A stretch of 64,000 nucleotides of DNA. Source: an uncultured Acidobacteriota bacterium (GTDB lineage: Bacteria; Acidobacteriota; Vicinamibacteria; Vicinamibacterales; CAVVIG01). The notes beneath the pieces were generated by a model. The model was not told the DNA's origin. It saw only the letters and a list, made by a program, of their open reading frames with translations, and made no database searches. Positions 164 through 63,893 of this stretch are shown piece by piece. Location: positions 64,138 to 128,137 of the forward strand of contig CAWCDQ010000045.1 in the NCBI GenBank assembly GCA_963794305.1. Reading direction: 5' to 3'. Position numbers and translations under genes: made by a program. Position 1 is the stretch's first letter, and each line of letters starts with the position of its first letter.

Positions 164-238
164 AACACAAAGGACACCAGGGACACAAAGGTCAGACTGT
201 TTTGGTTTTGCCTTTGTGTCCTTTGTGTCCTTCGTGTT
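164..238. repeat. Word-repeat hairpin, GGACACAAA family
   Basis: Left arm aacacaaaggacaccagggacacaaagg (164-191), 19-nt spacer, right arm cctttgtgtcctttgtgtccttcgtgtt (211-238). The arms are complementary except at 3 positions. The same family occurs at 54870-54941. Confidence 0.8.
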
Positions 239-983
239 TGGCCCGCGCAGCGACGGCCGGCTGCTCGCCGGCCTTTCGCAGCCGCTCGACCTCCTCGTCA
301 CTGAGATCCCGCCAGTATCCGAGTTTCAATCGCGGATCGCGCAGCGGTCCGATGGCGACGCGCTTGAGATGATCGACCGGGTGACCGATCGCATCGCACA
401 TGTTGCGGACCTGGCGATTGCGCCCTTCGCGCAGTGTGATGACCAGCGTCGCCCCTTTGGCGTCGCGCTTCATCGGCAGCATCGACACCTCTGACGCGCG
501 CATGCGGCGGCCGTCGATCGTCAGGCCGCGCTGCAGGCGTTCCAGGTCGTGCGCGTCCGGGACGCCGAGGACCGTCGCCTCGTAGACCCGCGCAATGCCG
601 TGGCTCGGGTGCGTCAACCGCGCCGCGAGGTCGCCGTCGTTCATCAGCAGGAGCAGTCCTTCCGATTCGTAGTCGAGCCGTCCAACCGGATAGACGTATT
701 CCTTGACGCCGCGCAGCAGATCGAGCACCGTCTTCCGCCGCTCAGGATCGGCGCGCGTCGTGACGTACCCGCGCGGCTTGTTGAGGAGGATGTACCGGTG
801 CCGCTCCGCCATCTTCACGCGTGAGCCGTCGACGCGGATGTCGTCGCGCGCCGGATCCGCCTTCGTGCCGAGCTCGCGGACGGTCGCGCCATTCACCGTG
901 ACGCGCCCCTCGAGCATCATCTGCTCGGACGCGCGCCGGGAGGCGACGCCAGCCTGCGACAGGATCTTCTGTAAACGTTCCAT
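192..983 (-). CDS. rluB: Pseudouridine synthase, RluB/RsuA family, with N-terminal S4 domain
   Basis: ORF 192..1019; likely start is MERLQKILSQAGVASRRASEQMMLEGRVTVNG at 983. It has the GRLDYESEGLLLLMNDG catalytic-Asp motif. The last ~15 codons (HEGHKGHKGKTKTV) read through the right arm of the 164-238 hairpin. Confidence 0.85.
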   Translation of the reverse strand: MERLQKILSQAGVASRRASEQMMLEGRVTVNGATVRELGTKADPARDDIRVDGSRVKMAERHRYILLNKPRGYVTTRADPERRKTVLDLLRGVKEYVYPVGRLDYESEGLLLLMNDGDLAARLTHPSHGIARVYEATVLGVPDAHDLERLQRGLTIDGRRMRASEVSMLPMKRDAKGATLVITLREGRNRQVRNMCDAIGHPVDHLKRVAIGPLRDPRLKLGYWRDLSDEEVERLRKAGEQPAVAARAKHEGHKGHKGKTKTV

Positions 984-1096
984 CACACGAGACACACGAA
1001 ACAGATGACCACGAGACACGCGAAAGAGATTAAAGGATTTTAGTCTTCTTCGTGTTTTTCGTGGGCTTGTCTTTTGTGGCTTTCGTGAGCTCGTGG
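984..1096. repeat. Word-repeat element, CACGAA(A/G)A family
   Basis: cacacgagacacacgaaacagatgaccacgagacacgcgaaagag, a 16-nt AT-rich spacer, then cttcttcgtgtttttcgtgggcttgtcttttgtggctttcgtgagctcgtgg. It fills the rluB/hydrolase spacer. Confidence 0.65.
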
Positions 1097-2284
1097 CTAA
1101 CGGGACAGCAAGTCTCCCCAGAAGCCCGCCAGCGGGAGCACATCGTTCATGCGCACCGGGCGGTCCGCTTCAGCGCGCGAGAGCAGTCCGCTCAGCAACA
1201 CACGCACTGGTGCGTGCCCGCGCAAGTCCGCCGCGAGGTATTCCGATTCAATCGCGGGAATCACGTTGTCCTCGAGCCCATGCAGCAGGAAGACCGGCAC
1301 GGTCGGCTTCGGCGATTTCGAGACGGACAGTCCTTCCGTCGCGGTCGATCCGATGAGGGGCAGCAGACGCGCCCCGAGATGCACCACGTCGCGCGCCAGC
1401 ACGTATCGCATGAGCGTGGCAGACGGCTCCGGCAGCGTGCGCGCGAACCTGGCGACGGCTTCGAACGCCTGGGGCGCGCGCGCCTTGTCGACGCCACCGT
1501 CGAGAGCCGACGCCGACAGGTACTGACGGACGCCGTCGCGCAGCCGGGCGACCTGCGCCGGCGGGACGACCCGATCGGCAAGCGACAGCAGGATCACGGG
1601 CACCCCGTAGTCGTGAGGCGGGATCACGACGTCGCTGTCGCGAGCGGTGCCGAGCTGGACATCGGGCATCGGCGACGGCTCGCGTCCCGTGCAGAGAAAA
1701 CGCAACACGCGCTGGAGATCGTCGTGGCCGCCGAGCGAGAAGACGTAGGCGACGCGGTTCGCCAGCGAAGGCCGCGCCGCCGCGATGACGGATAGCCCTC
1801 CGCTGAAGCTGATGCCCATCAGGGCGGCCTTGCGATCGGGAGCCAGCGCGGCCTGGTCGGCGAGCCAGGCTCCCGCGTCCTCGATGGCGTCCGTGATCGC
1901 GGGTGCGATTTCGAAGCGCGAGAGTTCAGGGATGTCGGGCGTGACGACCGCGATGTGGCTCGCGGCGATCTGCTGCGCCAGCCGCACCAGCCGCGGCTCG
2001 TCGATGCCCGACGCGTGAAGGCCCGAGGTCAGCAGCGCTGCGCGTGCATGCGAACCGGCCGGCTCGTACAGCCGTGCGCGCATCGGTCCGCGTCGCGTCG
2101 GGATCGACAGCTCGCTCTCGGTGACGCGTGTGGTATCGAAGTCGGCCGCGCGCCGGGCCGTGCCCTGCATGTCCGCCGCGCGGATGACGAACGACAGTCC
2201 GTGCAGGTACGGCCGGGTGATGAGCGCCAGTGCGAGCAGCGCCACTACAAAGATCGCCCAGCGCAGGAACCGCACGACGTGCAT
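1097..2284 (-). CDS. Membrane-anchored alpha/beta hydrolase
   Basis: Part of ORF 1097..2863. The plausible start is ATG at 2284 (MHVVRFLRWAIFVVALLALALI = TM anchor), because the upstream part overlaps cmk antisense. It has a GISFSGG nucleophile-elbow-like motif. Confidence 0.7.
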   Translation of the reverse strand: MHVVRFLRWAIFVVALLALALITRPYLHGLSFVIRAADMQGTARRAADFDTTRVTESELSIPTRRGPMRARLYEPAGSHARAALLTSGLHASGIDEPRLVRLAQQIAASHIAVVTPDIPELSRFEIAPAITDAIEDAGAWLADQAALAPDRKAALMGISFSGGLSVIAAARPSLANRVAYVFSLGGHDDLQRVLRFLCTGREPSPMPDVQLGTARDSDVVIPPHDYGVPVILLSLADRVVPPAQVARLRDGVRQYLSASALDGGVDKARAPQAFEAVARFARTLPEPSATLMRYVLARDVVHLGARLLPLIGSTATEGLSVSKSPKPTVPVFLLHGLEDNVIPAIESEYLAADLRGHAPVRVLLSGLLSRAEADRPVRMNDVLPLAGFWGDLLSR

Positions 2285-2389
2285 GTTACACTGCGATATC
2301 AGGCAGGCATCGGCAGAAGTGCAGGAACGGCAGGAGGAAATGCTCCGTACCGTTTCTTCGCTTCCTGCCCATCCCGCCCGTCCTGCCTC

Positions 2390-3064
2390 ATGAAACCCCT
2401 GGTGATTGCCATCGACGGTCCGTCCGGCGCCGGAAAAGGCACGATCGCTCGCGCGATCGCCAGCGAGCTTGGCTACCGTCACGTGGACAGCGGCGCGATG
2501 TACCGCGCGGTCGGCTGGAAAGCGCTGCGTCAGGCGGTGGCGCTCGACGACGAGGCGGGCATCGCCGCCATCGCCGAGAGCGCGAGGATCGACGTCACCG
2601 GCACGCATGTCACGATCGATGGAACCGACGTCACACGCGAGATCCGCACGCCTGATATCGATCGGGCGGCCGCAGGTGTCGCGCGGTTGCCGCGCGTTCG
2701 CGCCGTGCTCGTGGAGCAGCAGCGGCAGATGGGTGCCGGCGGCGGAATCGTGATGGAGGGGCGCGACATCGGGACCGTCGTGTTTCCTCACGCCGACGTC
2801 AAGCTGTACCTGGACGCATCGCCCGAAGAACGTGCGCGCCGGCGCGCCAACGACCCCGCGCACAGCGGCGTTCCCGCGGCGGTTTCCGACGTCGCGACGT
2901 TGCTGACGCAGCGCGACGAGCTCGATCGCACGCGCACCGCGTCGCCGCTCTACCCCGCCGAAGACGCGCTCGTTGTCGACACCACGGGGAAGAACATCGA
3001 CCTCGTCGTCAAGGAAGTGCTCGCCGTCGTCGAGCAGGTGCGACGCGCGAAGTCCGATGTCTGA
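2390..3064 (+). CDS. cmk: Cytidylate kinase
   Basis: In frame with ORF 1955..3064; start is MKPLVIAIDGPSGAGKGTIARAIASELGYRHVDSGAMYRA (P-loop). Confidence 0.9.
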   Translation: MKPLVIAIDGPSGAGKGTIARAIASELGYRHVDSGAMYRAVGWKALRQAVALDDEAGIAAIAESARIDVTGTHVTIDGTDVTREIRTPDIDRAAAGVARLPRVRAVLVEQQRQMGAGGGIVMEGRDIGTVVFPHADVKLYLDASPEERARRRANDPAHSGVPAAVSDVATLLTQRDELDRTRTASPLYPAEDALVVDTTGKNIDLVVKEVLAVVEQVRRAKSDV

Positions 3065-3885: not shown

Positions 3886-5685
3886 ATGGCGAACGTAGCA
3901 GACGAGAACACTCCCGGTGCGGGCAGCGGCGGGGTCGCGACGAGTGAGCGACCCGAACGGAGCGAACGCACGGATAAGGGCACGTTGAAGGCACGGCCCC
4001 GTGAGGACGACGACCAGATCGATCCGGCCGAGTACGCACGGCTGCTCGATTCCTACGATAACAGCTTCCGGAACATCGCGGAAGGTGAGGTCGTCAAGGG
4101 CACGGTTCTCAAGGTGACCGCATCAGAGGTGATTGTCGACGTCGGCTACAAGTCCGAAGGCATTATCTCGGTAGACGAGTTCCTCGACGAGAATCGCGAA
4201 GTCACGGTTCAGGCAGGCGACATCGTGGACGTCCTCCTCGAGCGCACCGAAGACCGCGAAGGTTACGTCGTCCTCTCGCGTGAAAAAGCCGAGAAGATGA
4301 AGATCTGGGACGAGGTCGAGAAGGCCTATGCCGAGCGCAAGGTCGTGATCGGCCGCGTCATCGAGCGGATCAAGGGCGGCCTCGCGGTGGACATCGGCGT
4401 CCGCGCGTTCCTTCCCGGATCGCAGATCGACGTGCGTCCCGTCCGGAACCTGGATGCGCTGCGCGGCCAGGAACTGCGGATGCGGGTCATCAAGGTCAAC
4501 AAGAAGCGCGGCAACATCGTGTTGTCCCGCAAGGCGCTCCTCGAAGAGGAGAACGCCGAGAAGAAGAAGCACACGCTCGACATCCTTGCCGAAGGCAAGG
4601 TGCTCAAGGGCGTCGTGAAGAACATCACCGACTACGGCGCGTTCATCGACCTTGGCGGTATCGACGGGCTGCTGCACATCACCGACATGTCCTGGGGCCG
4701 CGTCGGACATCCATCCGAGCTGTTCAAGGTCAACGACGAGATCGACGTGATCGTGCTGAAGTACGACCCGGCCACCGAGCGCGTCTCGCTCGGCCACAAG
4801 CAGCTCATCACCGATCCCTGGGCGAACGTGATGGAGCGCTACCCGGTCGGCGCGCGCATGGGCGGCAAGGTCGTCAGCCTCACCGACTACGGCGCGTTCG
4901 TCGAGCTCGAGGCGGGAGTCGAAGGGCTGATCCACGTCAGCGAGATGTCGTGGAGCAAGCGCGTCAAGCACCCGTCGAAGCTCCTCAACGTGGGCGACAC
5001 CGTGGACGCGATGGTGCTCGGAGTCGACGCCACCGCCCGGCGCATTTCGCTGGGCCTCAAGCAGGTCGAGACCAATCCGTGGCACGACCTGGCCGAGAAG
5101 TATCCCGTCGGCTCGAAGATTCAGGGCAAGGTGCGCAATCTCACGGAGTTCGGCGCGTTTGTCGAGGTGGAAGAGGAGATCGACGGTCTCATTCACATCT
5201 CGGACATGTCCTGGAGCAAGCGGATCAAGCATCCCTCCGAGGTCCTGAAGAAGGGCGACGTCGTCGAGGCGATGGTGCTGAACATCGACGCCGAGAACCA
5301 GCGGCTGTCGCTCGGGTTGAAGCAGCTCGCCACCGACATCTGGGACGACTTCTTCTCGCATCGCCACGTCGGCGACACGATCGAAGGCAAGGTCGTGCGC
5401 ATGACCAACTTCGGCGCGTTCGTCGAGCTCGACGAGGGCATCGAAGGGCTGATTCACGTGTCGGAATTCGACGACTCGGCGCACGCCGGCAAGGAAGGCA
5501 AGATCGAGCTGGTCGTCGGCGAAACCTATCCGATGAAGATCATCAAGCTGGCTCCGGCCGAGCGGAAGATCGGCCTGTCGATTCGCGCCTTGAAATCCGA
5601 CGAGTTCCGCGCGGACTGGGAGAGCTACCAGGAGAGCGCGGGCGACGGATCGGCGACGCTGGGCGACCACTTCAGAAATCGGTAA
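3886..5685 (+). CDS. rpsA: 30S ribosomal protein S1
   Basis: 599-aa ORF with six repeated S1 motifs (GxVxxxxxxGAFVxL..xEGLIHxSE). Confidence 0.95.
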   Translation: MANVADENTPGAGSGGVATSERPERSERTDKGTLKARPREDDDQIDPAEYARLLDSYDNSFRNIAEGEVVKGTVLKVTASEVIVDVGYKSEGIISVDEFLDENREVTVQAGDIVDVLLERTEDREGYVVLSREKAEKMKIWDEVEKAYAERKVVIGRVIERIKGGLAVDIGVRAFLPGSQIDVRPVRNLDALRGQELRMRVIKVNKKRGNIVLSRKALLEEENAEKKKHTLDILAEGKVLKGVVKNITDYGAFIDLGGIDGLLHITDMSWGRVGHPSELFKVNDEIDVIVLKYDPATERVSLGHKQLITDPWANVMERYPVGARMGGKVVSLTDYGAFVELEAGVEGLIHVSEMSWSKRVKHPSKLLNVGDTVDAMVLGVDATARRISLGLKQVETNPWHDLAEKYPVGSKIQGKVRNLTEFGAFVEVEEEIDGLIHISDMSWSKRIKHPSEVLKKGDVVEAMVLNIDAENQRLSLGLKQLATDIWDDFFSHRHVGDTIEGKVVRMTNFGAFVELDEGIEGLIHVSEFDDSAHAGKEGKIELVVGETYPMKIIKLAPAERKIGLSIRALKSDEFRADWESYQESAGDGSATLGDHFRNR

Positions 5686-5766
5686 TGGCTAAGGGCTGAG
5701 GGCTAATGGCTAGGGCGATGGTCGGCCATCGCCCATGTCCATCAGCCATCAGCCATCAGCCATGAG
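5684..5766. repeat. Word-repeat hairpin, ATGGCTG/CAGCCAT heptamer family
   Basis: aatggctaagggctgagggctaatggctagggcgatgg / tcgg / ccatcgcccatgtccatcagccatcagccatcagccat. It spans the whole rpsA-ihfB spacer. Sister copy at 56337-56433. Confidence 0.8.
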
Positions 5767-6129: not shown

Positions 6130-6213
6130 GCAGGGACTGGGGATTAGGGACTGGGGGCTGGAAGTTCCTGGCCCGTGACCCTGGCCCCAAGGCCCTAGCC
6201 CCTAGTCCCAGCC
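6130..6213. repeat. Word-repeat hairpin, GGGGCT(A/G)G / CCCCTAG family
   Basis: gcagggactggggattagggactgggggctgg ... cctggccccaaggccctagcccctagtcccagcc. Sister copy at 20031-20121. Confidence 0.75.
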
Positions 6214-6714: not shown

Positions 6715-6823
6715 TCACGAAAATCACGAAAGACCTGCGCGGAGTCGGCACGAAAATCACGAAAGAAACACCTGATTGCGTTTCGTGTGTTTCGTGCCGT
6801 TTGGGTTTCGTGTGTTTCGTGGT
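6715..6823. repeat. Word-repeat hairpin, CACGAAA family
   Basis: tcacgaaaatcacgaaagacc...cacgaaaatcacgaaagaaaca / tttcgtgtgtttcgtgccgtttgggtttcgtgtgtttcgtgg, directly after the HIT stop. Confidence 0.75.
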
Positions 6824-6835: not shown

Positions 6836-7978
6836 ATGATCCTCGAGCTCACGGCGGAACAGAAAGCCTTCCAACAACAGATCCAGCAGTTCGCGCGCGA
6901 GATCGTCGTGCAACGCGCCGCGGGCATCGACAAAACGGGCGAGTTTCCCGCCGACGTGATGCACGCGGCGGCGGGACAGGGGCTGCTCGGCGTCACGATT
7001 CCGAAGGCGTGGGGCGGGCTGGGCAAGGACTACGTGAGCTACGCGCTGGCGATCGAAGCGATCGCGCGCGCGAGCGCAACGGTGGCCGTCTCGCTGTCGG
7101 TGACCAACTCGCTCGTCGCCGAAGTGATCGCACACGCCGGACGCGACTCCCAGCGCGATCGCTGGCTGCGCAAGCTGGCGCGCGGCGAAGCCATCGGCGC
7201 CTTCGCGCTGTCGGAGCCGGACGCCGGCACCGATGCGGCGAACCAGCAGACGAGGGCCGTGCGTTCGGGGGACGGTTATCGGATCACCGGCAAAAAGGTG
7301 TGGGTCGCGAACGCCGAGGACGCCGCGGTGGCGATCGTGTTCGCGCGCACCCGGCCGGGACTGCGGGGACAGGGTGTCACCGCGTTCCTGGTGGCGATGG
7401 ATTCACCCGGCATCAGGCGAACGGCGCGCGCCGATTCGCTGGGCGTCCGCGGTCTCGGGTGCATGGACCTCGAGCTCGATCTCACCGTTGCGGACGATCA
7501 GGTGCTCGGCCATGTCGATCAGGGATTCGAGCTGGCGATGTGGGCGCTGCAGGGCGGGCGCGTGGCGATCGCCGCGCAGGCGCTCGGCATCGGGCAGGCG
7601 GCGCTCGACGAGGCGATTGCCTACGCGAAGCAGCGGGAGCAGTTCGGTCAGCCGATCGCCAATTACCAGGCGATCCAGTGGATGCTGGCCGACATGGCCA
7701 CCGAACTGGCCGCCGCGAGGATGCTCACGTTGAAAGCGGCCGCCGCCAAGGATACTCAGGAGAAGAGCAGCGTCGAGGCGTCGATGGCGAAGCTCGCCGC
7801 GTCCGAGGCGGCGCACAAGGCGGCGGACAAGGCGATGCAGATCCTGGCGTCGGCCGGCTATCGTCGAGGCTCGGTCGTGGAACGGCTGTTCCGCGACGTG
7901 CGGGCGACGGAGATTTATCAGGGGACGTCCGAAGCGCAGCGTATGATCATCGCCGCCAACGTGCTCGCCAACGTATAG
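6836..7978 (+). CDS. Acyl-CoA dehydrogenase
   Basis: 380-aa ORF with typical ACAD N-, middle and C-terminal regions (...IYQGTSEAQRMIIA). Confidence 0.9.
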   Translation: MILELTAEQKAFQQQIQQFAREIVVQRAAGIDKTGEFPADVMHAAAGQGLLGVTIPKAWGGLGKDYVSYALAIEAIARASATVAVSLSVTNSLVAEVIAHAGRDSQRDRWLRKLARGEAIGAFALSEPDAGTDAANQQTRAVRSGDGYRITGKKVWVANAEDAAVAIVFARTRPGLRGQGVTAFLVAMDSPGIRRTARADSLGVRGLGCMDLELDLTVADDQVLGHVDQGFELAMWALQGGRVAIAAQALGIGQAALDEAIAYAKQREQFGQPIANYQAIQWMLADMATELAAARMLTLKAAAAKDTQEKSSVEASMAKLAASEAAHKAADKAMQILASAGYRRGSVVERLFRDVRATEIYQGTSEAQRMIIAANVLANV

Positions 7979-8011
7979 GCAGGAACGGCGGGAGCGGGCA
8001 GGAGGGGCAGG

Positions 8012-16919: not shown

Positions 16920-16995
16920 AAGCTGACGACCAGCGGCTTTCGACTGACAACCGGCGACTGACGACTGACCGGCGACTGACGACTGATAACCACGC
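16920..16995. repeat. Tandem heptamer run, CGACTGA family
   Basis: ...cgactgacaaccggcgactgacgactgaccggcgactgacgactgataacc between the gdhA stop and the small ORF. Confidence 0.7.
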
Positions 16996-20030: not shown

Positions 20031-20121
20031 GGCCTGGGGATTGGGGATCAGGGGCTAGGTTGGGGCTGGTCGTGACAGCCGGATGAGCCTCCAGCCCCTA
20101 ACCCCTAGCGCCTAGCCCCTG
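20031..20121. repeat. Word-repeat hairpin, GGGGCT(A/G)G family
   Basis: ggcctggggattggggatcaggggctaggttggggctggt ... cctccagcccctaacccctagcgcctagcccctg. It fills the spacer between the two mutase subunits. Confidence 0.75.
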
Positions 20122-20523: not shown

Positions 20524-20580
20524 GCCCGGAAAACCCCTGTACCCTGAAGTCTGGAGTCTGAAGTTCCGATAAGTCAGACC

Positions 20581-21776: not shown

Positions 21777-21880
21777 TTGGCGAATTGGTGAGTTAGTGAA
21801 TTGGTGAATTGGAGGGTCGGTGACTTGAACTCGCCAGCTCACTGATTCGCCAACTCTCCAATTCGCCAAGTCACCAATTT
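21777..21880. repeat. Word-repeat hairpin, GAATTGGT / CACCAATT family
   Basis: ttggcgaattggtgagttagtgaattggtgaattgg ... ctcactgattcgccaactctccaattcgccaagtcaccaattt. Confidence 0.75.
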
Positions 21881-21897: not shown

Positions 21898-24558
21898 ATG
21901 CCCGAGTCGTCGACGCCGTTGACGCGCGTGGATCCCGCGCGTCTGCACCTTCCGGAGAAACCTGCCCTCGAAGGGCTCGAGTCGAAATGGATGCCCCGGT
22001 GGGAGGCATCCGGGGTCTATCGGTTCTCGCGCGTCGCGAATCGGTCCGACGTCTATTCCATCGACACGCCACCGCCGACGGTCAGCGGTTCGCTGCACGT
22101 CGGCCACGTCTTCTCCTACACCCACACCGATCTCGTGGCGCGCTTCCAGCGGATGCGCGGCAAGGCCGTCTTCTATCCGATGGGATGGGACGACAACGGG
22201 CTGCCGACCGAGCGCCGCGTCCAGAACTACTACGGTGTGCGCTGCGATCCCTCGTTGCCGTACGTCGCCAACTTCGAGCCGCCGGCACAACCGCCGAAGC
22301 CGCCGATCTCGGTATCGCGACCGAACTTCATCGAGCTCTGCGATCGCCTGACGAAAGAAGACGAGCGGGCGTTCGAGCAGTTGTGGAAGACGCTCGGCCT
22401 GTCGGTCGACTGGTCGATGACGTACGCCACGATTGGCAAGCGTGCTCAGCGCGTTTCGCAGCTCATGTTCCTCCACCACCTGGCGCGCGGGCTCGCTTAC
22501 CAGGTCGAGGCGCCCACGCTGTGGGACATCGACTTCAAGACCGCGGTGGCGCAGGCCGAGCTGGAAGATCGCGACATGCCGGCCGCCTACCATCGCGTCC
22601 GATTCAAGCTCGACGCCGATCGGTTCGTTGAGATCGACACGACCCGTCCCGAGCTGATTCCGGCGTGCGTCGCGCTGGTCGCGCATCCAGACGATGCGAG
22701 ATACCAGCCGCTGTTCGGGAAGGAAGTCGAGACGCCGCTCTTCGGCGTGAAGGTGCCGGTGCGGGCGCACCCGCTGGCCGATCCCGAAAAGGGCAGCGGC
22801 ATCGCGATGATCTGCACGTTCGGCGACGTGACCGACGTGACGTGGTGGCGGGAGCTGAGCCTGCCGGTGCGCGCCGTGATTCAGCAGGACGGGACGCTGC
22901 GCGACGTGACCTGGGGCGCGCCGGGATGGGAGTCGGCCGATGCCGGGCGCGCGCAGCGCCACTACGCCGATCTGAAAGGGCTGACCGCCGCGAAGGCGCG
23001 CGCCAAAATCGTCGAACAGCTGCACGCCAGCGGCGACCTGGTGGGTGAGCCGCGGCCGATCACCCACGCCGTGAAGTTCTACGAGAAGGGCGATCGCCCC
23101 CTCGAAATCGTCACCAGCAGGCAGTGGTTCATCAAGACGATCGAGCTCCGCGAGGCCCTGATCGCCCGCGGCAAAGAGCTCCAGTGGCACCCGGAATACA
23201 TGGAGACGCGTTTCGAGAACTGGGCGAACGGCCTCAACGGGGATTGGTGCATCAGCCGCCAGCGGTACTTCGGTGTGCCGTTCCCCGTGTGGTACCCGCT
23301 CGACGGCCAGGGGCGGGTGCAGTACGACAAGGCGATGCCGGCGCGCGAAGACCAGCTGCCCGTGGATCCGTCCACGGACGTTCCGGCAGGCTATCGTGAA
23401 GATCAGCGCGGCGTGCCGGGCGGGTTCATCGGCGATCCGGACGTGATGGACACGTGGGCGACCTCGTCGGTCTCGCCGCAAATCGTCTGCGGCTGGCCGG
23501 ACGACAAGGAACTGTTCGCGATCACGTTTCCGATGGATCTGCGCCCGCAGGCGCACGACATCATCCGCACGTGGCTGTTCGACTCGGTGCTGCGCGCGCA
23601 CCTGGAACACGACTCGCTGCCCTGGATGCACGCGGCGATTTCGGGGTGGGTGCTCGACCCCGACCGCAAGAAGATGTCGAAGTCGAAGGGCAACGTCATC
23701 ACGCCGATGGCGCTGCTGGAAGAGTTCGGCTCGGACGGCGCGCGCTACTGGGCCGCGAGCGGCCGGCCCGGAACCGACACCGCATTCGATCCCGGCCAGA
23801 TGAAGGTCGGCCGGCGTCTCGCGATCAAGATCCTCAACGCCTCGAAGTTCGCCCTCATGAACACGGCTGCGCCGGCAGATGGCGCGCAGTCGCCGCGGGC
23901 GACTGCGATCACGGCTGCCGTCGATCGCGCGATGCTCCGCGACCTTGCCGCGCTGGTGGACGAGGTCACCAAAGCGTTCGACGCGTACGACTACGCGCGC
24001 GTGCTCCAGCGCACCGAGGCGTTCTTCTGGGGCTTTTGCGACGATTACCTCGAGCTGGTCAAGGGACGCCGGTACGGTGAGCAGGGCGTGGAAAGCGCGG
24101 GCTCGGCCAACGCGGCGCTCACCGCCGCGCTGTCGGTGATGCTGCGCCTGTTCGCCCCGTTCCTTCCCTATGTCACAGAGGAGGTCTGGTCGTGGTGGCG
24201 GGAGGGCTCGATTCACACGAGTCCATGGCCGACGGCGGGAGAGCTGACGTCGCTGCTCGACGACAACGCACCGGAAACGGCCGCGGCCGACCGGGCGACC
24301 TACCAGTGGGCAACCGACGTGCTGTTCGAGGTTCGCAAACAGCGCTCCGAAGCCAAGCAGCCGCTGAAGGTGCCGATCACCAGGGTCACCGTGACAGCCG
24401 AGGCTGCCGCGATCGCGTTGATGCCTGTTGTCGACGCCGACCTGCGCGCGGCACTGCGCGTGCTGGCGTTCGAGACCGCCGCCGGCGAGCCGCGCCAGAT
24501 TGTCGTGACCGGCTACGAGCAGCCCGCGCTGAAATCGGAGTCCCAGTCTGAAATCTGA
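21898..24558 (+). CDS. valS: Valine--tRNA ligase
   Basis: 886-aa intact ORF with PPPTVSGSLHVGH (HIGH) and KMSKSKGN (KMSKS) motifs. The last codons (LKSESQSEI*) lie in a CTGAAAT word run. Confidence 0.97.
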   Translation: MPESSTPLTRVDPARLHLPEKPALEGLESKWMPRWEASGVYRFSRVANRSDVYSIDTPPPTVSGSLHVGHVFSYTHTDLVARFQRMRGKAVFYPMGWDDNGLPTERRVQNYYGVRCDPSLPYVANFEPPAQPPKPPISVSRPNFIELCDRLTKEDERAFEQLWKTLGLSVDWSMTYATIGKRAQRVSQLMFLHHLARGLAYQVEAPTLWDIDFKTAVAQAELEDRDMPAAYHRVRFKLDADRFVEIDTTRPELIPACVALVAHPDDARYQPLFGKEVETPLFGVKVPVRAHPLADPEKGSGIAMICTFGDVTDVTWWRELSLPVRAVIQQDGTLRDVTWGAPGWESADAGRAQRHYADLKGLTAAKARAKIVEQLHASGDLVGEPRPITHAVKFYEKGDRPLEIVTSRQWFIKTIELREALIARGKELQWHPEYMETRFENWANGLNGDWCISRQRYFGVPFPVWYPLDGQGRVQYDKAMPAREDQLPVDPSTDVPAGYREDQRGVPGGFIGDPDVMDTWATSSVSPQIVCGWPDDKELFAITFPMDLRPQAHDIIRTWLFDSVLRAHLEHDSLPWMHAAISGWVLDPDRKKMSKSKGNVITPMALLEEFGSDGARYWAASGRPGTDTAFDPGQMKVGRRLAIKILNASKFALMNTAAPADGAQSPRATAITAAVDRAMLRDLAALVDEVTKAFDAYDYARVLQRTEAFFWGFCDDYLELVKGRRYGEQGVESAGSANAALTAALSVMLRLFAPFLPYVTEEVWSWWREGSIHTSPWPTAGELTSLLDDNAPETAAADRATYQWATDVLFEVRKQRSEAKQPLKVPITRVTVTAEAAAIALMPVVDADLRAALRVLAFETAAGEPRQIVVTGYEQPALKSESQSEI

Positions 24559-24610
24559 ACTCTTCTGAAATTAATCTCGATCCCGTGCCTCCGCCCTCTA
24601 CCGCGACGTC

Positions 24611-27043: not shown

Positions 27044-27750
27044 ACGAGTACTGCCGCGAGATTGAAACCTACCTCTGTCGGAAGAACGACGGCCATCTGA
27101 TTCGCGTCGTGGGCCCATCCTTCGAGGTGGTCTCCGGCTGGGCGGAACAGCGGTGTGCCGCTCAAGGTCGCCTTCTCGGGCATCGACCGCTACTTCGAGC
27201 GCTACTACCGCAAGGGCGCGCGGCGCCGGCCCGTCAAAATCGATTTCTGCGACGCCGACGTGCTCGACGTCTTCGACGAATGGAAGCGCGCCACCGGCGT
27301 GGTGATGGCCTCCGCCTCCTCGCGGACTCTGCGGCAATCCACAATCCGCAATCCACAATCCGCAATCCCTCTCTGCCGGCGCATCTCGAGCGCGTGGTAC
27401 TGCGGTTAACGTCGGCGCGTGCCAGCGGGACGCTCGGCGACGAGTTCGATGCGTTGATCGATCGCGCTTCGGCGGAGCTGGACGCGGCTCGCGCGAAGGC
27501 GGGAGGCCTTCGAGGGACGGCGCGGCAGACGCTGTTGGATCGACTTGCGGCGCTCGACGCGGAGGTCGTACGCCAGGCGCGGTCGAGCCTCGACGAGTCC
27601 ACACGCGCATCGCTCGTGCGGGAGGCCGAATCCGAACTGGCCGGGTACCGCGCAGGCATGACCGCGGAGGCGTTCGCGCGCGCGTTGGACGCCGCGGTCG
27701 ATCGTCTCGTCCGCGAACGGGCCAGGCTGCCCACGATCGCGTTCGTCTGA
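27025..27750 (+). CDS. Conserved-looking hypothetical protein (two frame changes, heptamer repeat in linker)
   Basis: Frame 1 runs from GTG 27025 (MGTQPVDEYCREIETYLCRKNDGHLIRVVGPSFEVVSGWAEQ). An extra base at about 27151 moves to frame 2 (GVPLKVAFSGIDRYFERYYRKG...FDEWKRATGV, ORF 27155..27409). It returns to frame 1 somewhere in 27300-27375 (LPAHLERVVLRL...coiled-coil...TIAFV*). Confidence 0.55.
   Translation: MGTQPVDEYCREIETYLCRKNDGHLIRVVGPSFEVVSGWAEQRCAAQGRLLGHRPLLRALLPQGRAAPARQNRFLRRRRARRLRRMEARHRRGDGLRLLADSAAIHNPQSTIRNPSLPAHLERVVLRLTSARASGTLGDEFDALIDRASAELDAARAKAGGLRGTARQTLLDRLAALDAEVVRQARSSLDESTRASLVREAESELAGYRAGMTAEAFARALDAAVDRLVRERARLPTIAFV
27335..27369. repeat. Perfectly phased heptanucleotide tandem repeat (CAATCCN)x5 inside a coding region
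   Basis: caatcca caatccg caatcca caatccg caatccc. Confidence 0.9.
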
Positions 27751-49251: not shown

Positions 49252-49342
49252 CCACGAAGACACGAAGACGCGAAGAACCAGCACGAAGAAAGCCCTATTG
49301 GTTTCTTCTTCGTGCGTCTTCGTGACCTTCGCGTTTTCGTGG
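49252..49342. repeat. Word-repeat hairpin, CACGAAGA family, between convergent genes
   Basis: ccacgaagacacgaagacgcgaagaaccagcacgaagaaa / gccctattgg / tttcttcttcgtgcgtcttcgtgaccttcgcgttttcgtgg. Confidence 0.8.
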
Positions 49343-53718: not shown

Positions 53719-53719
<1 letters not shown>

Positions 53720-53783
53720 ACGTGAGAAGTCAGAAGTGAGAAATCTGAAATCTGAAATCTGAACCCTGAAGTCTGAAATTCTC
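53719..53783. repeat. Tandem heptamer run, CTGAAAT/CTGAAGT family
   Basis: gacgtgagaagtcagaagtgagaaatctgaaatctgaaatctgaaccctgaagtctgaaattctc fills the dnaK-dnaJ spacer. Related runs occur at 20536-20580 and 24533-24580. Confidence 0.75.
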
Positions 53784-54887
53784 ATGGACTTCTATCTCAT
53801 TCTGGGCGTCGAGCGTGGTGCGTCGCTGGCCGACGTCAAGCGGGCGTACAAGCGGCTCGCGCGGAAGTACCATCCGGACATCAACCCGGGTGACCGCCAG
53901 GCGGCGGCGCAGTTCCGTCAAATCGCCGAGGCGTACGAGACGCTGAGCGACATGGAGCGCCGCCAGCAGTACGACCGCACAGGATCGCTCGAGGAAGCCG
54001 GCGGCGGCCCGGCGTTCGGCTTCGACGGCTTCGACTTCACGGTCAGCGTCCACGGGGACGAGGCGCCGACCTTCGGCGATCTGTTCGCCGACGTCCTGAA
54101 TCAGCGCGGCGCGAGGCGGGCGCAGGGCACGCCGGAGCGCGGCGTCGATCTGCATCAGTCCATTGCGCTCGAGTTCGACGAGGCGTTCCGCGGGAGCAGG
54201 CGGACGATCACCGTCACGCGGCAGGACGACTGCCCGACGTGCGGGGGCACCGGTCAGCTTCACGTGACGCCGTCCGCGTGCGCGCACTGTCGTGGTGCCG
54301 GCGCGGTGAAGTCGGTCCGGGGACACATGGTGTTCTCAAAGCCGTGTCTTCACTGCGGCGGCACGGGGCAGCAGCGCCAGGCCCGCTGTCCGGCGTGCCG
54401 CGGCGATCAGTATCAGATGCGGACCGAGTCGATGACGATCAGCGTGCCGGCCGGTCTGGCCGATGGCGCGCGGATCCGGGTTCCCGGCAAGGGCCACGTC
54501 GGCCGCAACGGCGGCGAGGCCGGCGACCTCTACGTCGACGTCACCGTGCGGCCCCATCCGTTCTTCGAGCGCGACGGCGACGATCTGCACGTGACGGTGC
54601 CCGTGGCCGTGCACGAGGCGGCGCTCGGCGCGAAGATCGAGGTGCCGTCTCCCGACGGCCCGGCGCGCGTGCGCCTGCCGCCGGGCACCCAGTCGGGCCA
54701 GCGGTTTCACGTGCGCGAACGCGGCATGCCCTCGCCGCGCGACGGACGCCGCGGCGACCTGGTCGTCGAGGTTCAGCTCGCGCTGCCAAGGATGCTGGAC
54801 GAACGGTCGAAGGAACTGTTGCGGGAGTTCGGGCGGATCAACGCGGTGGATGTTCGACAGGAGCTGAATCAACACAAAGGACACTAA
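53784..54887 (+). CDS. dnaJ: Co-chaperone DnaJ
   Basis: 367-aa ORF with a J domain (HPD: KYHPDINPGD) and four CxxCxG zinc-finger motifs. Confidence 0.93.
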   Translation: MDFYLILGVERGASLADVKRAYKRLARKYHPDINPGDRQAAAQFRQIAEAYETLSDMERRQQYDRTGSLEEAGGGPAFGFDGFDFTVSVHGDEAPTFGDLFADVLNQRGARRAQGTPERGVDLHQSIALEFDEAFRGSRRTITVTRQDDCPTCGGTGQLHVTPSACAHCRGAGAVKSVRGHMVFSKPCLHCGGTGQQRQARCPACRGDQYQMRTESMTISVPAGLADGARIRVPGKGHVGRNGGEAGDLYVDVTVRPHPFFERDGDDLHVTVPVAVHEAALGAKIEVPSPDGPARVRLPPGTQSGQRFHVRERGMPSPRDGRRGDLVVEVQLALPRMLDERSKELLREFGRINAVDVRQELNQHKGH

Positions 54888-54941
54888 GGACACAGAGAAA
54901 AATCCGATACTGCCTTGGTGTCCTTTGTGTCCTCTGTGTTG
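54870..54941. repeat. Word-repeat hairpin, GGACACAAA family
   Basis: caacacaaaggacactaaggacacagag / aaaaatccgatactg / ccttggtgtcctttgtgtcctctgtgttg. The left arm overlaps the last six dnaJ codons (NQHKGH*). Confidence 0.8.
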
Positions 54942-55342: not shown

Positions 55343-55395
55343 CGACGCAATCGTGAATAGGTGTGTTGGTGAATCGGTGAGTTGGTTAATGCGTC
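55343..55395. repeat. Word-repeat run, GAAT(T/C)GGTGA family
   Basis: gtgaataggtgtgttggtgaatcggtgagttggttaatg. Same word family as 21777-21880. Confidence 0.6.
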
Positions 55396-55470: not shown

Positions 55471-56336
55471 ATGTCCTGCGAGCTGTGTGACGACACGGGG
55501 TGGAAGCCCGTCGACGAGAAGGGCATCCGCCGCGTGGTCCGCTGCGACTGCTGGCGCGAGCAGGTGGGTGGGCATCGCCTCGCCGCCGCGAACATCCCGA
55601 AGCGCTATCAGCACTGCACGCTCGAGAATTTCTCCGCCTACAATCCGTCGCTCGAGCGCGCGCTCGAGCAGGCGCGACGCGTACCCGGCGGTTTCCGTCG
55701 GCCAACAACCTCCGCGAGCAGGGTCGAGGGCTGCTGCTTGGCGGCTTGCCGGGCGTCGGCAAGACGCACCTCGCGGTCGCCGTCCTCAAACAGGTGATGA
55801 ACTCCTCGCCGGCGCGCGGGCTGTTCTACGACACGCGCGATCTGCTGCGCGTCATCCGCAGCACCTACGATCCGTCGATCCGGACCACCGAGCTCGAGGT
55901 GCTGCGGCCGGTGATGACCGCGGATCTGCTCGTGCTCGACGATCTGGGCGCCGAGAAGACGTCGGAGTGGGTCGAGGAGACGATGAACCTGATCGTCAAC
56001 ACCCGCTACAACGAGCGGCGACTGACCATCTTCACCACCAACTACGTCGACATTCCCGACGACACGGATCCGAACTCGCTGATCTGCCGCATCGGCTTCC
56101 GGATGCGATCGCGGCTGCACGAGATGTGCGACTTCGTCGAGATGGACGGCGCCGACTACCGCGAGCTGCCCAAGAACGGCGGCCCGGAAGACCTGATCAT
56201 GCTGTGGAAGAAGCGGAAGATGTCGCCGCTGCCCTCGCCGCGCGGCGGACGTCAGGCGCGCGCCCAGCTGCGCGATCCGTCCGTGCGCGACGGCAAGGCC
56301 GACCTCAAATGGCCGGGCGGACGGGCGGGCTCTTAG
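55471..56336 (+). CDS. DnaC/IstB-like AAA+ ATPase with N-terminal Cys cluster (apparent frameshift)
   Basis: ORF 55471..55797 (MSCELCDDTGWKPV...VRCDCW) joins ORF 55500..56336 at about 55675-55700. Walker A GLPGVGKTHLAVA, Walker B LLVLDDLG. Confidence 0.65.
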
Positions 56337-56433
56337 AATGGCTGAGGGCTAATGGCTGATGGCTATGGAGAATGGTTCTTCCACCGGCCATGACCATCAG
56401 CCATCAGCCATTAGCCATCAGCCATCAGCCATG
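56337..56433. repeat. Word-repeat hairpin, ATGGCTG/CAGCCAT heptamer family
   Basis: aatggctgagggctaatggctgatggctatggagaatgg ... ccatgaccatcagccatcagccattagccatcagccatcagccatg. The right arm ends in the hemW ATG. Confidence 0.8.
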
Positions 56434-60477: not shown

Positions 60478-61215
60478 ATGATGCGTGCGCTCGCGATCCT
60501 CGCTCCTGGCCGCGCAGACGGCGGCGTCGCCCATCGCTGGATGTCTCCTCGCTGACTGTTTCGTCACCGACGCTCGTCTGCGAGCTCGACATGAATCAGC
60601 TGAAGGGCGAGCTGCGCCGGCTTTCGTTGTCGCCGGACGGCCGCAACATCCACGTGCAGACCGCCGAGATCGGCGTCGCTCAGCACGACTACATCGTCAC
60701 GATGCCGGACGGCGTCGTCAGCCTCGCGTTTGGCGAGCCGGAGTGGGCGGCCGCGTACTGGGCGATGAAGTCGGACATGGCGGCGCCGGGCATTCCGTCG
60801 CTGCGGCTCGAGGTGCAGCAGGACAACCGGCGCACGCGTCCGACGCCGTTCACCGGCGGCACCGCCAACGGCGGCGCGTACACGCCCGACGTCAGGAATC
60901 CGGTCGATGCCTTCGAGTCGGAAGTCACGCTGCGTCTGCTCGGCGTGCAGCTCGGCAACTGGATCAACGGCGCGCCGATGGCTGGTGAAACCTTCGGCTG
61001 GGGGCCTGCGGGCAGCGGCGCGATCGTGTTCGTCGGATCCGGCGAACGGCTCACGCTGATGGATCAGGCAGGCGCGACGGAAGGTTGTCGCCACGATCAA
61101 GGGCGCGTCGATGCCCGCGTGGTCGAGCGACGGCACGCGGCTCGCGTTCCTGCAGAAGGCCGGGAGGAAGCGCTACCGGCTCATGACCGCGGCAGTCGGG
61201 CGTGCTACGATCTAG
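60478..61215 (+). CDS. Hypothetical secreted protein, tandem paralog B (three apparent frameshifts)
   Basis: ATG 60478 with frame changes at about 60503, 60535 and 61080. ...LDVSSLTVSSPTLVCELDMNQLKGELRRLSLSPDGRNIHVQTAE...MPAWSSDGTRLAFLQKAGRKRYRLMTAAVGRATI* is colinear with paralog A. Confidence 0.5.
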
Positions 61216-61220
61216 AGTTC

Positions 61221-62368
61221 ATGGACTTCCGGCCGACCGAAGAGCAGGAACTGCTGCGCCGCACGGTGCGGGAGTTCGCCGAAACCGAAATCCGCCCGCA
61301 CATCCGCGAATGGGATGAGGAGTCAGCGCTTCTCCGCCGACCTGATGCCGAAGCTGGCGGCGCTCGGCCTGCTCGGCATTCAGTATCCCGAGCAGTACGG
61401 CGGCGCCGGCATGTCGGCGATCGACTATTGCATCTGCATCGAGGAGCTCGCGCGCGTCGATCCGAGCATCGCGTTGTCGGTCGCCGCGCACAACGGCCTC
61501 TGCGCGTCGCACATCTTCCTGTTCGGTTCCGACGACCAGAGAACGCAGTTCCTCGCGCCGCTCGCCCGCGGCGAGAAGCTTGGCGCGTGGGGTCTGACCG
61601 AATCGACGTCCGGGAGCGACGCGGCGAACATGCGCACCACCGCCGCGCGCGCCGGCGAGTGCTGGGTGATCAACGGATCCAAGACGTTCATCACGCACGG
61701 GCGGATCTCCGACGTGATGGTGGTGATGGCGGTCACCGACCGCACGGCCGGCCGCAAGGGCGTCTCGGCGTTCATCGTCGAGCGGGGCAACCCGGGCATG
61801 TCGCCCGGCAAGAAGGAAGACAAGCTCGGCATGCGCGCCAGCGACACGAGCGAGGTGCTGTTCGACAACTGCCGTATTCCCGCGGATCGGCTCGTCGGCG
61901 TCGAAGGCGAAGGCTTCATCAACACGATGCAGGTGCTCGACGCCGGGCGCATCGGCATCGCGGCGCTGTCGGTCGGGCTCGCGCAGGGCGCGTACGAGGC
62001 GGCGCTGCGCTACGCGCGCGAGCGCAAGTCGTTCGGCAAGACCGATCTCCGGCTTCCAGGCGATTCAGTGGAAGCTCGCGGACGCGGCGACGAAGATCGA
62101 AGCGGCGCGGCTGCTGACGTATCGCGCGGCCTACCTGAAAGGGCGCGGCGCGCGGACTTCGCTCGAGTCGTCGATGGCCAAGCTCTACGCGAGCGAGATC
62201 GCGGTGAAGGTCGCCGACGACTGTGTCCAGATTCACGGCGGCTACGGCTTCGTGAAGGACTACCCGGCCGAGAAATACTTCCGCGACGTCAAGCTGACCA
62301 CCATCGGCGAAGGGACGAGCGAGATCCAGCGTCTCGTCATCGCTCGCCAGCTCCTGTCGCACTCGTGA
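61221..62368 (+). CDS. Acyl-CoA dehydrogenase (two apparent frameshifts)
   Basis: ATG 61221 ([34 protein letters not shown]), extra base about 61323, ORF 61315.. ([18 protein letters not shown]...), extra base about 62054, then ORF 62174..62368 frame ([24 protein letters not shown]...[23 protein letters not shown]). Confidence 0.85.
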
Positions 62369-63353
62369 CGCCCACGCTCGCCGAGAGGCTCCTGGCGGGC
62401 GATCCGCGCGCGATCGCGCGCGCGATTTCCCTCATCGAGGACGAGGATCGCTCGGCGGCCGATCTGGTGCGCGCGATCTTCGCTCACACGGGCCGTGCGT
62501 ACCTGATTGGCGTCACGGGCCCTCCCGGCGCCGGCAAGAGCACGCTCGTCGATCGGCTGATCACGAACCTGAAGAAACCGCAGAGACCGCAAAGCACGCA
62601 GAGTGAAGAAACCATCGTCGTCGATCTCGTCGATCGGTGTGATCGCCGTCGATCCGACAAGCCCGTTCACCGGCGGCGCGGTGCTCGGCGATCGACTGCG
62701 GATGCAGGCACACGCGTCGGATCGCTGGCGTGTTCATCCGCAGCATGGCGACCCGCGGACATCTGGGCGGCCTCGCGCGCGCGACAGGCGACGCGGCCCT
62801 CGTGCTCGACGCGGCCGGCAAGGACGTGGTGATCATCGAGACCGTCGGCGTCGGACAGGACGAAGTGGACATCATCCGCACTGCCGACGTCTCGATCGTC
62901 ACGCTGGTGCCGGGCACGGGCGACGAGGTGCAGGCGCTCAAGGCCGGCATCATGGAGATCGCCGACATCTTCGTCGTGAACAAGGCGGACCGGGAAGGGG
63001 CCGAGCGCCTCGTGTCGGCGGTCGAGTCGAACCTCGCGCTCCATCCGTATGCGAACGGAGAATGGCGGCCGCCGATTCTGAAGACCGTCGCCACGACGGG
63101 GCAGGGCATTGCGGAGGTCGTGGACCGCATCGCGGCGTTTCGCGCGCATTCGCAGGCGGCGCAGGCCGCGCGCCGGAAGACACGAAGCGAGTACCGCCTG
63201 CGGGAGCTCGTGTCGCAGCGGTTCATGGATCATCTCGAACGGCAGGTGCTGACGCCAGGCGAACTCGGCGCGATCGTCGACCGCATCGCGGCGCGAGAGG
63301 TCGATCCGTACACGGCGGCGAACGACCTGCTGACCCGCGCGATTGGACGCTGA
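62365..63353 (+). CDS. meaB: Methylmalonyl-CoA-mutase-associated GTPase MeaB/ArgK (34-nt insertion plus a second frame break)
   Basis: GTG 62365 overlaps the ACAD stop. P-loop [13 protein letters not shown] frame change is caused by the 62571-62613 repeat, followed by [30 protein letters not shown]. An extra base at about 62718 leads into ORF 62730..63353 ([15 protein letters not shown]...[10 protein letters not shown]). Confidence 0.85.
62571..62613. repeat. 25-nt word-type insert flanked by a perfect 9-bp direct repeat inside meaB
   Basis: GAAGAAACC-gcagagaccgcaaagcacgcagagt-GAAGAAACC. Removing one repeat plus the insert (34 nt, +1 in frame terms) restores the MeaB reading frame. Confidence 0.8.
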
Positions 63354-63370
63354 GTGCCGAGCCACTGACA

Positions 63371-63442
63371 ACTCACGAAAGACACGAAGCAAGAAGACCT
63401 CTGTTCACTGTTTCGTGGCGTTGTTTTCGTGCGTTTCGTGAT
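63371..63442. repeat. Word-repeat hairpin, CACGAA(A/G)A family
   Basis: actcacgaaagacacgaagcaagaag / acctctgttcactg / tttcgtggcgttgttttcgtgcgtttcgtgat. Confidence 0.75.
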
Positions 63443-63455
63443 CCCGGGTCGTCAG

Positions 63456-63893
63456 ATGAAAGCTATTCTCGATCACGTCGGCATCGCGGTAAAGGACCTC
63501 GCGGCGGCGCTCGCGTTCTATCGCGACGCGCTCGGTCTCGAGATCGAAGCGCCCGAAGACGTCGCGTCGCAGCGCGTCCGCGCGCATTTTCTGCCGGTGG
63601 GCGAGGCCAAGCTCGAGCTGCTCGAAGCGACCGCGCCCGATTCGCCGATCGCGAAGTACACGGACAAGCGCGGCCCCGGGCTGCATCACATCACGCTGCG
63701 CGTCGACGACATTCGACGCCGCGCTCGCCCAGCTCCAGGCGCGCGGCGCGCGGCTGATCGACGAGCAGCCGAGGCCCGGCGCGGAACACTCGCTGGTCGC
63801 CTTCGTTCACCCCTCGAGCGCTCACGGCGTGCTCGTCGAGCTGAAGCAGTCGCCAGTCGTCAGCCATCAGCCAGTCAGCCATCAGCCGCATGA
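63456..63893 (+). CDS. Methylmalonyl-CoA epimerase (VOC/glyoxalase fold; apparent frameshift, 3' end unclear)
   Basis: MKAILDHVGIAVKDL... at 63456 in ORF 63429..63893. An extra base at about 63714 separates HHITLRVDDI from DAALAQLQARGARLIDEQPRPGAEHSLVAFVHPSSAHGVLVELKQ. In the corrected frame no stop occurs before the window end. Confidence 0.75.
   Translation: MKAILDHVGIAVKDLAAALAFYRDALGLEIEAPEDVASQRVRAHFLPVGEAKLELLEATAPDSPIAKYTDKRGPGLHHITLRVDDIRRRARPAPGARRAADRRAAEARRGTLAGRLRSPLERSRRARRAEAVASRQPSASQPSAA

Follow-up and report, generated by a model that had tools for sequence, protein, structure and literature searches.

Heptameric STRR (short tandemly repeated repetitive) sequences of cyanobacteria, reportedly described by Mazel et al. 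in 1990, are said to form direct intergenic arrays, with consensus words of their own, in the heterocystous members of that group. The closest published parallel to the elements considered here is given by the GGGAATC heptamer arrays of Xanthomonas, 70-75 of which are arranged as inverted, convergent pairs and could fold into stem-loops (Rehm et al. 2015, PMC4692102). These arrays lie within ~50 nt of stop codons or overlap them, are under-represented between divergent open reading frames (ORFs), have their G-rich strand on the sense side, and vary in copy number between related strains (PMC4692102). Here we describe word hairpins from a 64,000-nucleotide stretch of contig CAWCDQ010000045.1 (from a soil acidobacterium of the order Vicinamibacterales; 66% GC; the whole stretch is referred to as the window) and from its relatives: elements of 60-110 nt at gene ends, in which one arm repeats a degenerate word of 7-9 nt in tandem and the other arm repeats the reverse complement of this word. 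Word hairpins are common throughout the Vicinamibacterales, and a site can retain its hairpin although the sequence that forms it is exchanged.

The likeness to the GGGNATC repeats of Rehm et al. extends to tandem heptamers, a genome of ~65% GC, proximity to stop codons, depletion between divergent genes and inverted pairs. The Xanthomonas repeats, however, constitute one word family, are read as formers of G-quadruplexes (G4) and prefer four units, whereas here we find ~200 words, a G4 capability in only 20% of the elements, mostly inverted adjacent arrays, and a turnover of words at a fixed spacer. Measured by the G4 definition used for Xanthomonas (G3-4 tracts, at least four tracts), only 21 of 106 strict two-armed elements contain a canonical motif on either strand; the CACGAAA, GGACACAAA, ATGGCTG and GAATTGGT families are devoid of G-tracts. 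We note that the placement of the G-rich strand near stops in Xanthomonas (PMC4692102) resembles the purine-first polarity of the arms described below. A first-pass annotation of the window, made from its letters alone, knew of no such system in a high-GC genome, a statement that the published Xanthomonas arrays overturn (PMC4692102). Its comparison with STRRs holds for the building blocks, that is, intergenic tandem 7-nt words (period 7 in 87 of the 106 strict elements) with several word families per genome; its description of the sites as hairpins fails at ~40% of those listed. STRRs further differ in that hairpin arrangement and stop abutment are not defining, and the host here is an acidobacterium: the relatives of the genome are Vicinamibacterales or Acidobacteriota, and their ~200 words are different ones. 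No description of word hairpins in Acidobacteria/Acidobacteriota or Vicinamibacter was found in the literature, and what appears to be undescribed is the version seen in Acidobacteriota, in which there are many words and these turn over rapidly.

Relatives of the window were obtained by two routes. Contig L001, reached through the HIT protein, is a sister contig with 97.6-98.6% identity to the window; a genome scan with RpsA yielded 80 loci, nearly all from metagenome-assembled genomes (MAGs) of Vicinamibacterales, Vicinamibacteria or Acidobacteriota. Two MAG records in the RpsA set are titled Bifidobacterium or Bifidobacteriaceae, and the RpsA proteins of L002 and L003 are 100% identical to that of the window. 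The leading blastn match given for L002 has 87% nucleotide identity, but as many loci are pooled in this output, its assignment to L002 or L003 is tentative. The census covers 1.6 Mb from 82 sources including L001 (81 without it) and uses a windowed periodicity score combined with a Smith-Waterman search for a complementary partner arm. Two other detectors were dropped: a strict tandem-repeat detector (match +1, mismatch -2) returned 1 element only, and an exact 5-mer pair detector gave 11 hits against a chance background of ~4.4 per 64 kb.

The census yields 524 periodic segments, 313 of which have a complementary partner nearby. With L001 left out (81 sources, 1.6 Mb), ~198 two-armed elements remain, a density of ~1 per 8 kb. 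The window contains 17 periodic segments versus ~1 in codon- and spacer-shuffled controls, and 6 strict two-armed elements versus 0.05 in Markov controls. Adjacent arrays have reverse-complementary consensus words (at most 1 mismatch) in 69 of 102 cases, versus 2.6% in controls, and are direct copies in only 6 of 102. Element density is uneven by lineage: none or nearly none are found in L010, L011, L029, L030, L039, L040 and L079 (5-22 kb each), and 10-17 word arrays in each of L048, L076, L058, L059 and L063.

The elements have a characteristic position. As the first-pass annotation had proposed, they abut stop codons: relative to the last base of the stop codon, the median position of the gene-proximal edge is -2 nt (n = 113), with 82 of 113 edges within -15..+10. 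The next start is found ~11 nt past the element, far enough to accommodate a Shine-Dalgarno site. Elements extend from the stop codon towards the Shine-Dalgarno site and start of the next gene, or towards the stop of a convergent gene. They occupy 13% of co-directional (++), 17% of convergent and 4.7% of divergent spacers; divergent spacers are the longest of all, yet elements are three- to four-fold depleted there. About one gene boundary in eight carries an element in the window organism and its relatives. The initial impression of an element at almost every boundary was too generous, even for the window: only ~18-20 of its ~50 boundaries are occupied, with none in 28-49 kb.

Each stretch listed in the first-pass annotation was folded as RNA and compared with 200 dinucleotide shuffles. 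Tandem-repeat and inverted-repeat searches recover the described words in all 18 stretches, and distant copies of one family indeed have arm sequence in common. Two arms, which had been claimed for every site, are present in 10 of the 18; 7 are one-armed direct arrays and the site at 63371 is marginal. Folding is strong (z -5.5 to -9.1, -37 to -61 kcal/mol) at 164, 54870, 6715, 49252, 5684, 56337 and 21777, moderate at 984 (z -3.7), 6130 (z -2.4) and 20031 (z -2.4), and no better than in shuffles (z -2.0 to +1.35) at 63371, 63855, 55343, 20536, 24533, 53719, 16920 and 27335. The two-armed elements of the window, none of which is assigned a strand, are as follows.

164..238, unstranded: hairpin with three 9-nt words per arm (ACACAAAGG type), -45.9 kcal/mol, z -8.5; between convergent scpB and rluB, with the rluB stop (192-194) in the loop.
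984..1096, unstranded: hairpin of irregular CACGARA words, z -3.7 (second fold z -6.4); takes up the whole spacer that separates the stop of gene 1097-2863(-) from the rluB(-) start. The sister strain L001 has a GGACACAAA-type element in this spacer.
2296..2393, unstranded: hairpin of GGCAGGA/TCCTGCC words, -48.6 kcal/mol, z -4.7; absent from the first-pass annotation, and hypervariable, with 37 differences between window and L001 within 2300-2400.
5684..5766, unstranded: hairpin of ATGGCTN words in the rpsA-ihfB spacer, -51.6 kcal/mol, z -6.1; the rpsA stop lies inside the first word, and the following words begin TAA/TGA/TAA/TAG.
6130..6213, unstranded: hairpin of GGGRCTR words in the ihfB-HIT spacer, -49.5 kcal/mol, z -2.4; the HIT start follows 3 nt past the element.
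6715..6823, unstranded: hairpin of CACGAAA(AT) words that follows the HIT gene, -49.9 kcal/mol, z -5.5.
20031..20121, unstranded: hairpin of GGGGMTN words, -51.8 kcal/mol, z -2.4; between the genes for the large and the B12-binding subunit of methylmalonyl-CoA mutase.
21777..21880, unstranded: hairpin of 8-nt GAATTGGT words upstream of a class I tRNA synthetase gene, -53.3 kcal/mol, z -8.3.
49252..49342, unstranded: hairpin of 8-nt CACGAAGA words, -53.5 kcal/mol, z -8.2; between convergent Vgb-lyase-like and transpeptidase genes.
54870..54941, unstranded: hairpin with the same three-word cassette as 164-238, in the dnaJ-hspR spacer, -37.4 kcal/mol, z -9.1.
56337..56433, unstranded: hairpin of ATGGCTG words after the IstB/DnaC-like gene, -60.9 kcal/mol, z -8.8; the inverted repeat measures 27 nt and is 96% complementary.
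63371..63442, unstranded: two-armed CACGAAA element, weak and degenerate, that follows the meaB-like gene, z -1.3, marginal.

The one-armed arrays are as follows.

7976..8011, plus strand: purine-rich array (GGCAGGAGG type), no hairpin, z -0.1; fills the spacer from the acyl-CoA dehydrogenase stop to the asparaginase start, and is absent from the first-pass annotation.
16920..16995, minus strand: CGACTGA array, z +0.3; in the spacer that separates the stop of gdh (16998) from the start of a small ORF (16919), two minus-strand genes.
20536..20580, plus strand: CTGAAGT array that reaches up to the start of the response-regulator gene, z +0.3.
24533..24580, plus strand: CTGAAAT-type array over the tRNA synthetase stop (24556-24558), z +0.5.
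27335..27369, plus strand: CAATCCR array with a 14-nt super-period (100% match at period 14) and no fold; the gene model around it is uncertain.
53719..53783, plus strand: GAAGTSA/GAAATCT array filling the dnaK-dnaJ spacer up to the dnaJ start, z -2.0.
55343..55395, plus strand: GTGAATNG array immediately past the hspR stop, enclosed as a loop by a 9-bp stem, z -1.1.
63855..63890, plus strand: CAGCCAT array, z +0.7.

Words of the second list can be two-armed elsewhere, as is the case for CGACTGA in L028 and CAATCCR in L065. The one-armed arrays, and only these, also recall the direct TAACTGA heptamer arrays of Beggiatoaceae, cyanobacteria and Bacteroidetes (MacGregor 2015, PMC4679880), which are almost never inverted (one case in 170; PMC4679880). 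Both consist of forward heptamers that extend up to the downstream start codon (here 53719-53783, 20536-20580, 16920-16995(-) and 7976-8011), and our words include similar ones that contain CTGA (AAATCTG, CTGAAGT). The taxa are different, however, and so is the word: TAACTGA itself is not among the one-armed words (GAAATCT, CTGAAGT, CGACTGA, GGCAGGAGG).

Stable hairpins at gene 3' ends and in convergent spacers might be taken for the ordinary intrinsic (Rho-independent) terminators of a high-GC genome, an explanation we consider very improbable. The absence of U-tracts, already stated in the first-pass annotation, is borne out: TTTT follows the hairpin in 1 of 111 cases, at least 4 T occur within the first 8 nt in 9 of 111, and the T fraction after the hairpin is 0.21 versus 0.18 in the background. 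With elements padded by ~15 nt on each side, the fitted fold has 42 pairs and a median span of 114 nt, far beyond typical terminator stems. Elements are also found between genes that need co-expression, as part of obligate operons (one separates the two mutase subunits, others lie within dnaK-dnaJ-hspR), and only 13-17% of the eligible spacers are occupied. Since U-tracts are missing, co-expressed operons contain elements and occupancy is low, we conclude that these hairpins are probably not strong terminators. Shorter U-tracts and longer terminator stems have been reported for high-GC species (PMC13613805). Word hairpins are similar to the U-tract-less 3' stem-loops of high-GC bacteria in being long, stable 3'-end stems; the latter, however, lack tandem words and have much shorter stems. 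At the gathering score, no Rfam family matches anywhere in the 64 kb; below threshold there are only look-alikes of miRNA precursors (21-34 bits versus cut-offs of 38-110), and the window contains no tRNA genes.

The two arms are not equivalent. Whichever strand is read 5' to 3', the arm that comes first is the purine-richer one, with G>C, in 76 of 95 elements from the window and L002-L081 (p = 3e-9). The reverse complement of a hairpin keeps this polarity, hence the purine-first rule belongs to the element rather than to the gene strand, and its use as a strand marker was rejected. The two strands are in fact nearly symmetric: the sense RNA is more stable than the antisense RNA in 34 versus 22 cases, with a mean of -1.5 kcal/mol and p = 0.08, which is not significant. 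Near-symmetric strands and a purine arm followed by a pyrimidine arm, which is a property of the duplex, would both suit an action at the DNA level, in which G-quadruplexes or i-motifs, cruciforms, triplexes or arrays of sites bound by a nucleoid or regulatory protein affect supercoiling, replication or recombination. The words GGGATTA and GGGGCTG are G4-capable, the related heptamers of Xanthomonas and Nostoc form G4 in vitro (PMC4692102), and the concentration of strain differences at the elements recalls the instability of triplex motifs (PMC4666352). We nevertheless regard a DNA-level action as improbable. Four-fifths of the strict elements have no canonical G4 motif, a dedicated binding protein for each of ~200 words is impossible, the 7-9-nt period does not match the helical repeat of DNA, and both stop abutment and depletion in divergent, promoter-containing spacers are better explained by a role linked to transcript or translation.

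The orthologous spacers of related genomes, whose comparison had been proposed with the first-pass annotation, show that word identity turns over. The spacer between rpsA and ihfB contains a word hairpin in 37 of 74 genomes; ~19 more genomes have a long, strongly folding spacer that the detector scored as non-periodic, and in 18 of 74 the spacer is at most ~65 nt long and without a strong fold. Depending on the genome, the words are, for example, ATGGCTG, GGGGCTG, GGGATTA, GGTGGCT, GGAGGCT, GGCGATA, GGATTTG or CAGCTTC. Among contigs that encode an identical IhfB, third-codon positions of ihfB are 1-11% different, and the flanking elements differ by 7-20% plus indels or are of another word family altogether (GGGATTA in L085, GGGGCTN in L091). 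The words change faster than the silent sites of neighbouring genes. After the HIT gene, the element is of the CACGAAA, GGACACAAA or CGCAGAG type, depending on the strain, and the swapped block takes in the last ~5 HIT codons.

Between the window and L001, differences are likewise concentrated in the elements. The L001 counterpart of 6130..6213 has the same G-to-A change in three words of one arm, and the opposite arm has changed to match, which is concerted evolution within the element; in one strain, a 24-nt arm segment is lost. A stop triplet recurs exactly one period past the gene stop in 23 of 204 elements, versus 3-7 at neighbouring offsets, indicating that some arrays grew by duplication of the unit that contains the stop.

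Several reading frames enter an element and stop inside it, namely those of rluB, dnaJ and an epimerase-like ORF (164-238, 54870-54941 and 63855-63893). The dnaJ stop (54885-54887) lies in the left arm in the window and in the loop in other strains (374 versus 367 amino acids; L092 2557-2616). The CAGCCAT array at 63855-63890, when translated, is the C-terminal tail of the glyoxalase/epimerase-like ORF 63429-63893. Protein C-termini are therefore rewritten by the turnover of elements.

Presence or absence of an element and replacement of one family by another at a single spacer, in strains with identical IhfB, are features that also fit selfish or neutral DNA similar to REPINs or MITEs (miniature inverted-repeat transposable elements). 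On this explanation, which is the main rival and which we hold to be possible but on balance unlikely, palindromic cassettes would be copied by an enzyme or by template switching without any host function, and would survive only where a self-folding insert is harmless, i.e., between stop and ribosome binding site or between convergent genes. In a hairpin, the stop would remain spatially near the following start, leaving translational coupling unbroken, and the rluB, dnaJ and epimerase-like ORFs that stop inside elements are as expected of gene-end insertions. Some genomes are, moreover, almost free of elements. The distribution of words is in line with this as well. Exact words are shared by 2.9% within a 21-kb locus versus 0.34% between genomes (~8-fold), and a 9-nt GGACACAAA element with three words per arm and a distinctive, variant middle word is present at at least 5 loci in close strains. 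A pattern scan of metagenomes finds the GGACACAAA family on at least 120 soil contigs; those listed have a GC content of 44-72%.

Other features of the same data are harder to reconcile with selfish DNA. The loops show no relation between the GGACACAAA copies compared, and no target-site duplication is visible flanking them, in contrast to MITEs. The ~200 distinct 7-mer consensus words form a continuum, not a few families. The block swapped after the HIT gene, including its last codons, resembles allelic recombination rather than transposition, and a Pfam scan of ~50 window ORFs revealed no transposase or RAYT domain. Finally, a strong hairpin at one spacer in ~75% of genomes cannot be obtained by random insertion unless the spacer is a hotspot. 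At about a third of the array ends of the GGACACAAA family, stop triplets are concentrated 3 and 7 nt ahead of the first word (-3 and -7); we considered these triplets as part of the element termini and rejected the idea, as the stop type varies (TAA, TAG, TGA) and the stops are probably the genes' own.

Arrays and hairpins of the word GGACACRAA were also observed on contigs of 44-58% GC with AT-rich flanks (L102, L106, L110, L112, L147, L211, L212 and others), including a 186-nt array of this word in L147, and other word arrays occur on lower-GC contigs too. These occurrences suggest that the phenomenon is wider than one order, the word family or its underlying process extending well outside the Vicinamibacterales.

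A palindromic, extragenic element at gene 3' ends or between cistrons invites comparison with REPs (repetitive extragenic palindromes), for which a role in the protection of mRNA 3' ends has been proposed. REPs, BIMEs and REPINs share with word hairpins this location, the palindromic structure, species-specific families, and arms that are more conserved than loops. The differences lie in the units. A REP unit is in itself an imperfect palindrome of 20-40 nt; it bears a GTAG or CGTC tag, and RAYT (Y1) transposases mobilise it (PMC3733652). The arms of word hairpins are direct word arrays with neither a GTAG/CGTC tag nor a palindrome inside each arm. The window does contain GTAG-tagged REP-like palindromes (e.g., GTAGTGCGGACCTTCAGGTCCGC and GTAGCGGCCGACCCATGTGTCGGCC) at 9150-9310, 16597-16657 and 46925-46984; at two of the sites the palindromes are paired head to head in the manner of REPINs, as inverted copies (z -8.1 and -6.4), and one site has three copies in a convergent spacer. 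They constitute a family distinct from the word hairpins, and suggest that a RAYT is encoded somewhere in the genome. The first-pass annotation likened the elements to STRRs more than to classical terminators or REPs; with their missing U-tract and next to this separate family, they are indeed neither canonical terminators nor GTAG-tagged REPs.

We further note an IstB/DnaC-like ATPase gene (55382-56336) located directly after dnaK-dnaJ-hspR, without an adjacent IS21 transposase. In sister contigs the gene carries the Pfam domain IstB_IS21, and its position is kept in all strain contigs (L092 3140-4006).

Repeats of this kind call for caution as to the assembly. The window is probably a long-read metagenome assembly with indel errors: several conserved genes are broken by frameshifts, namely dnaK (51781-53739, the frame being lost after ~residue 355), murJ (45253-46814, split into at least two ORFs), acyl-CoA dehydrogenase/meaB (60591-63353, both domains being fused in one reading) and a desaturase fragment (59457-59765). 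An origin of the elements as artefacts of assembly or sequencing of a long-read metagenome could draw on the imperfect base-level quality seen in dnaK, murJ and acyl-CoA dehydrogenase/meaB, and has a virtually negligible probability. Independent Illumina assemblies (JGI, MEGAHIT k141, SPAdes NODE) have elements of this type at identical spacers, and they are also present in long-read assemblies and many MAG projects. For the elements as a class the artefact is refuted; the frameshifted genes advise caution over single-base details of the words, where individual differences could be errors.

Taken together, we tentatively favour, as plausible rather than established, an interpretation as REP-like 3'-end or intercistronic RNA hairpins that are built and rebuilt by slippage and arm-to-arm copying. 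The element would form the 3' tail of the transcript of the upstream gene, where it would adopt a long hairpin fold without a U-tract. Instead of acting as a canonical intrinsic terminator, it would act like REPs and BIMEs or the intercistronic stem-loops of other high-GC bacteria, and might block 3'-to-5' exonucleases, mark a processed 3' end, or attenuate read-through in part. The word architecture would be the trace of mutational processes: replication slippage would add, remove and homogenise words, and arm-to-arm copying, by fold-back template switching or by repair within the hairpin, would keep the arms complementary. Because periodic arms pair in any register, gain and loss of words is tolerated. 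Occasional copying or recombination between loci and strains would spread a word family, and one-armed arrays may represent the same raw material without a partner arm, filling the spacer between stop and start.

Several observations weigh against these REP-like RNA hairpins. The argument for a role at the RNA level is drawn from position, and the difference between sense and antisense folds is not significant. RNAalifold applied to strain alignments classes 0 of 30 and 4 of 20 pairs as compensatory, a result that is itself uninformative, as periodic arms align in several registers and the alignments are accordingly unreliable; the complementarity of whole words in adjacent arrays served as the test in its place. 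The low occupancy of eligible spacers, together with relatives that are free of elements (none in 21 kb of L029, nor in L010, L039 and L040), means that the elements are dispensable. The multiple loci of the GGACACAAA cassette and the excess of word sharing within genomes indicate copying between loci, beyond slippage in place. Likewise, the rule that the purine-rich arm comes first is not predicted by slippage combined with a REP-like function.

A further reading takes the elements for a so far unrecognised, widespread class of self-renewing gene-end cassettes in soil Acidobacteriota, possibly also outside them: palindromes of tandem words seeded at or targeted to stop codons, with arms homogenised together, copied between loci without RAYT or a classical transposase, and with a role coupled to translation termination. 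We consider this combination unlikely as a whole. The copying could proceed, e.g., by fold-back template switching, and the purine-first order and the stop abutment would then reflect this coupling. Ribosomes might be released, or might re-initiate on the far side of the hairpin; alternatively, the hairpin might shield C-rich RNA from Rho.

Few bacteria in soil are as abundant as the Vicinamibacterales, and to our knowledge almost nothing is known about how their transcripts end and are stabilised. Extrapolated to a genome of ~6 Mb (an assumed size), the observed density would correspond to several hundred hairpins per genome; if this extrapolation is true, word hairpins are a major unannotated feature of gene organisation in the clade. 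They are a hazard for assembly and gene calling, as ORFs enter the elements and stop inside, and their faster-than-silent-site change makes them potential markers for strain typing. The elements show 3'-end hairpins in the course of being made, enlarged and replaced, and slippage of short words combined with inverted copying could be a general route to 3'-end hairpins de novo.

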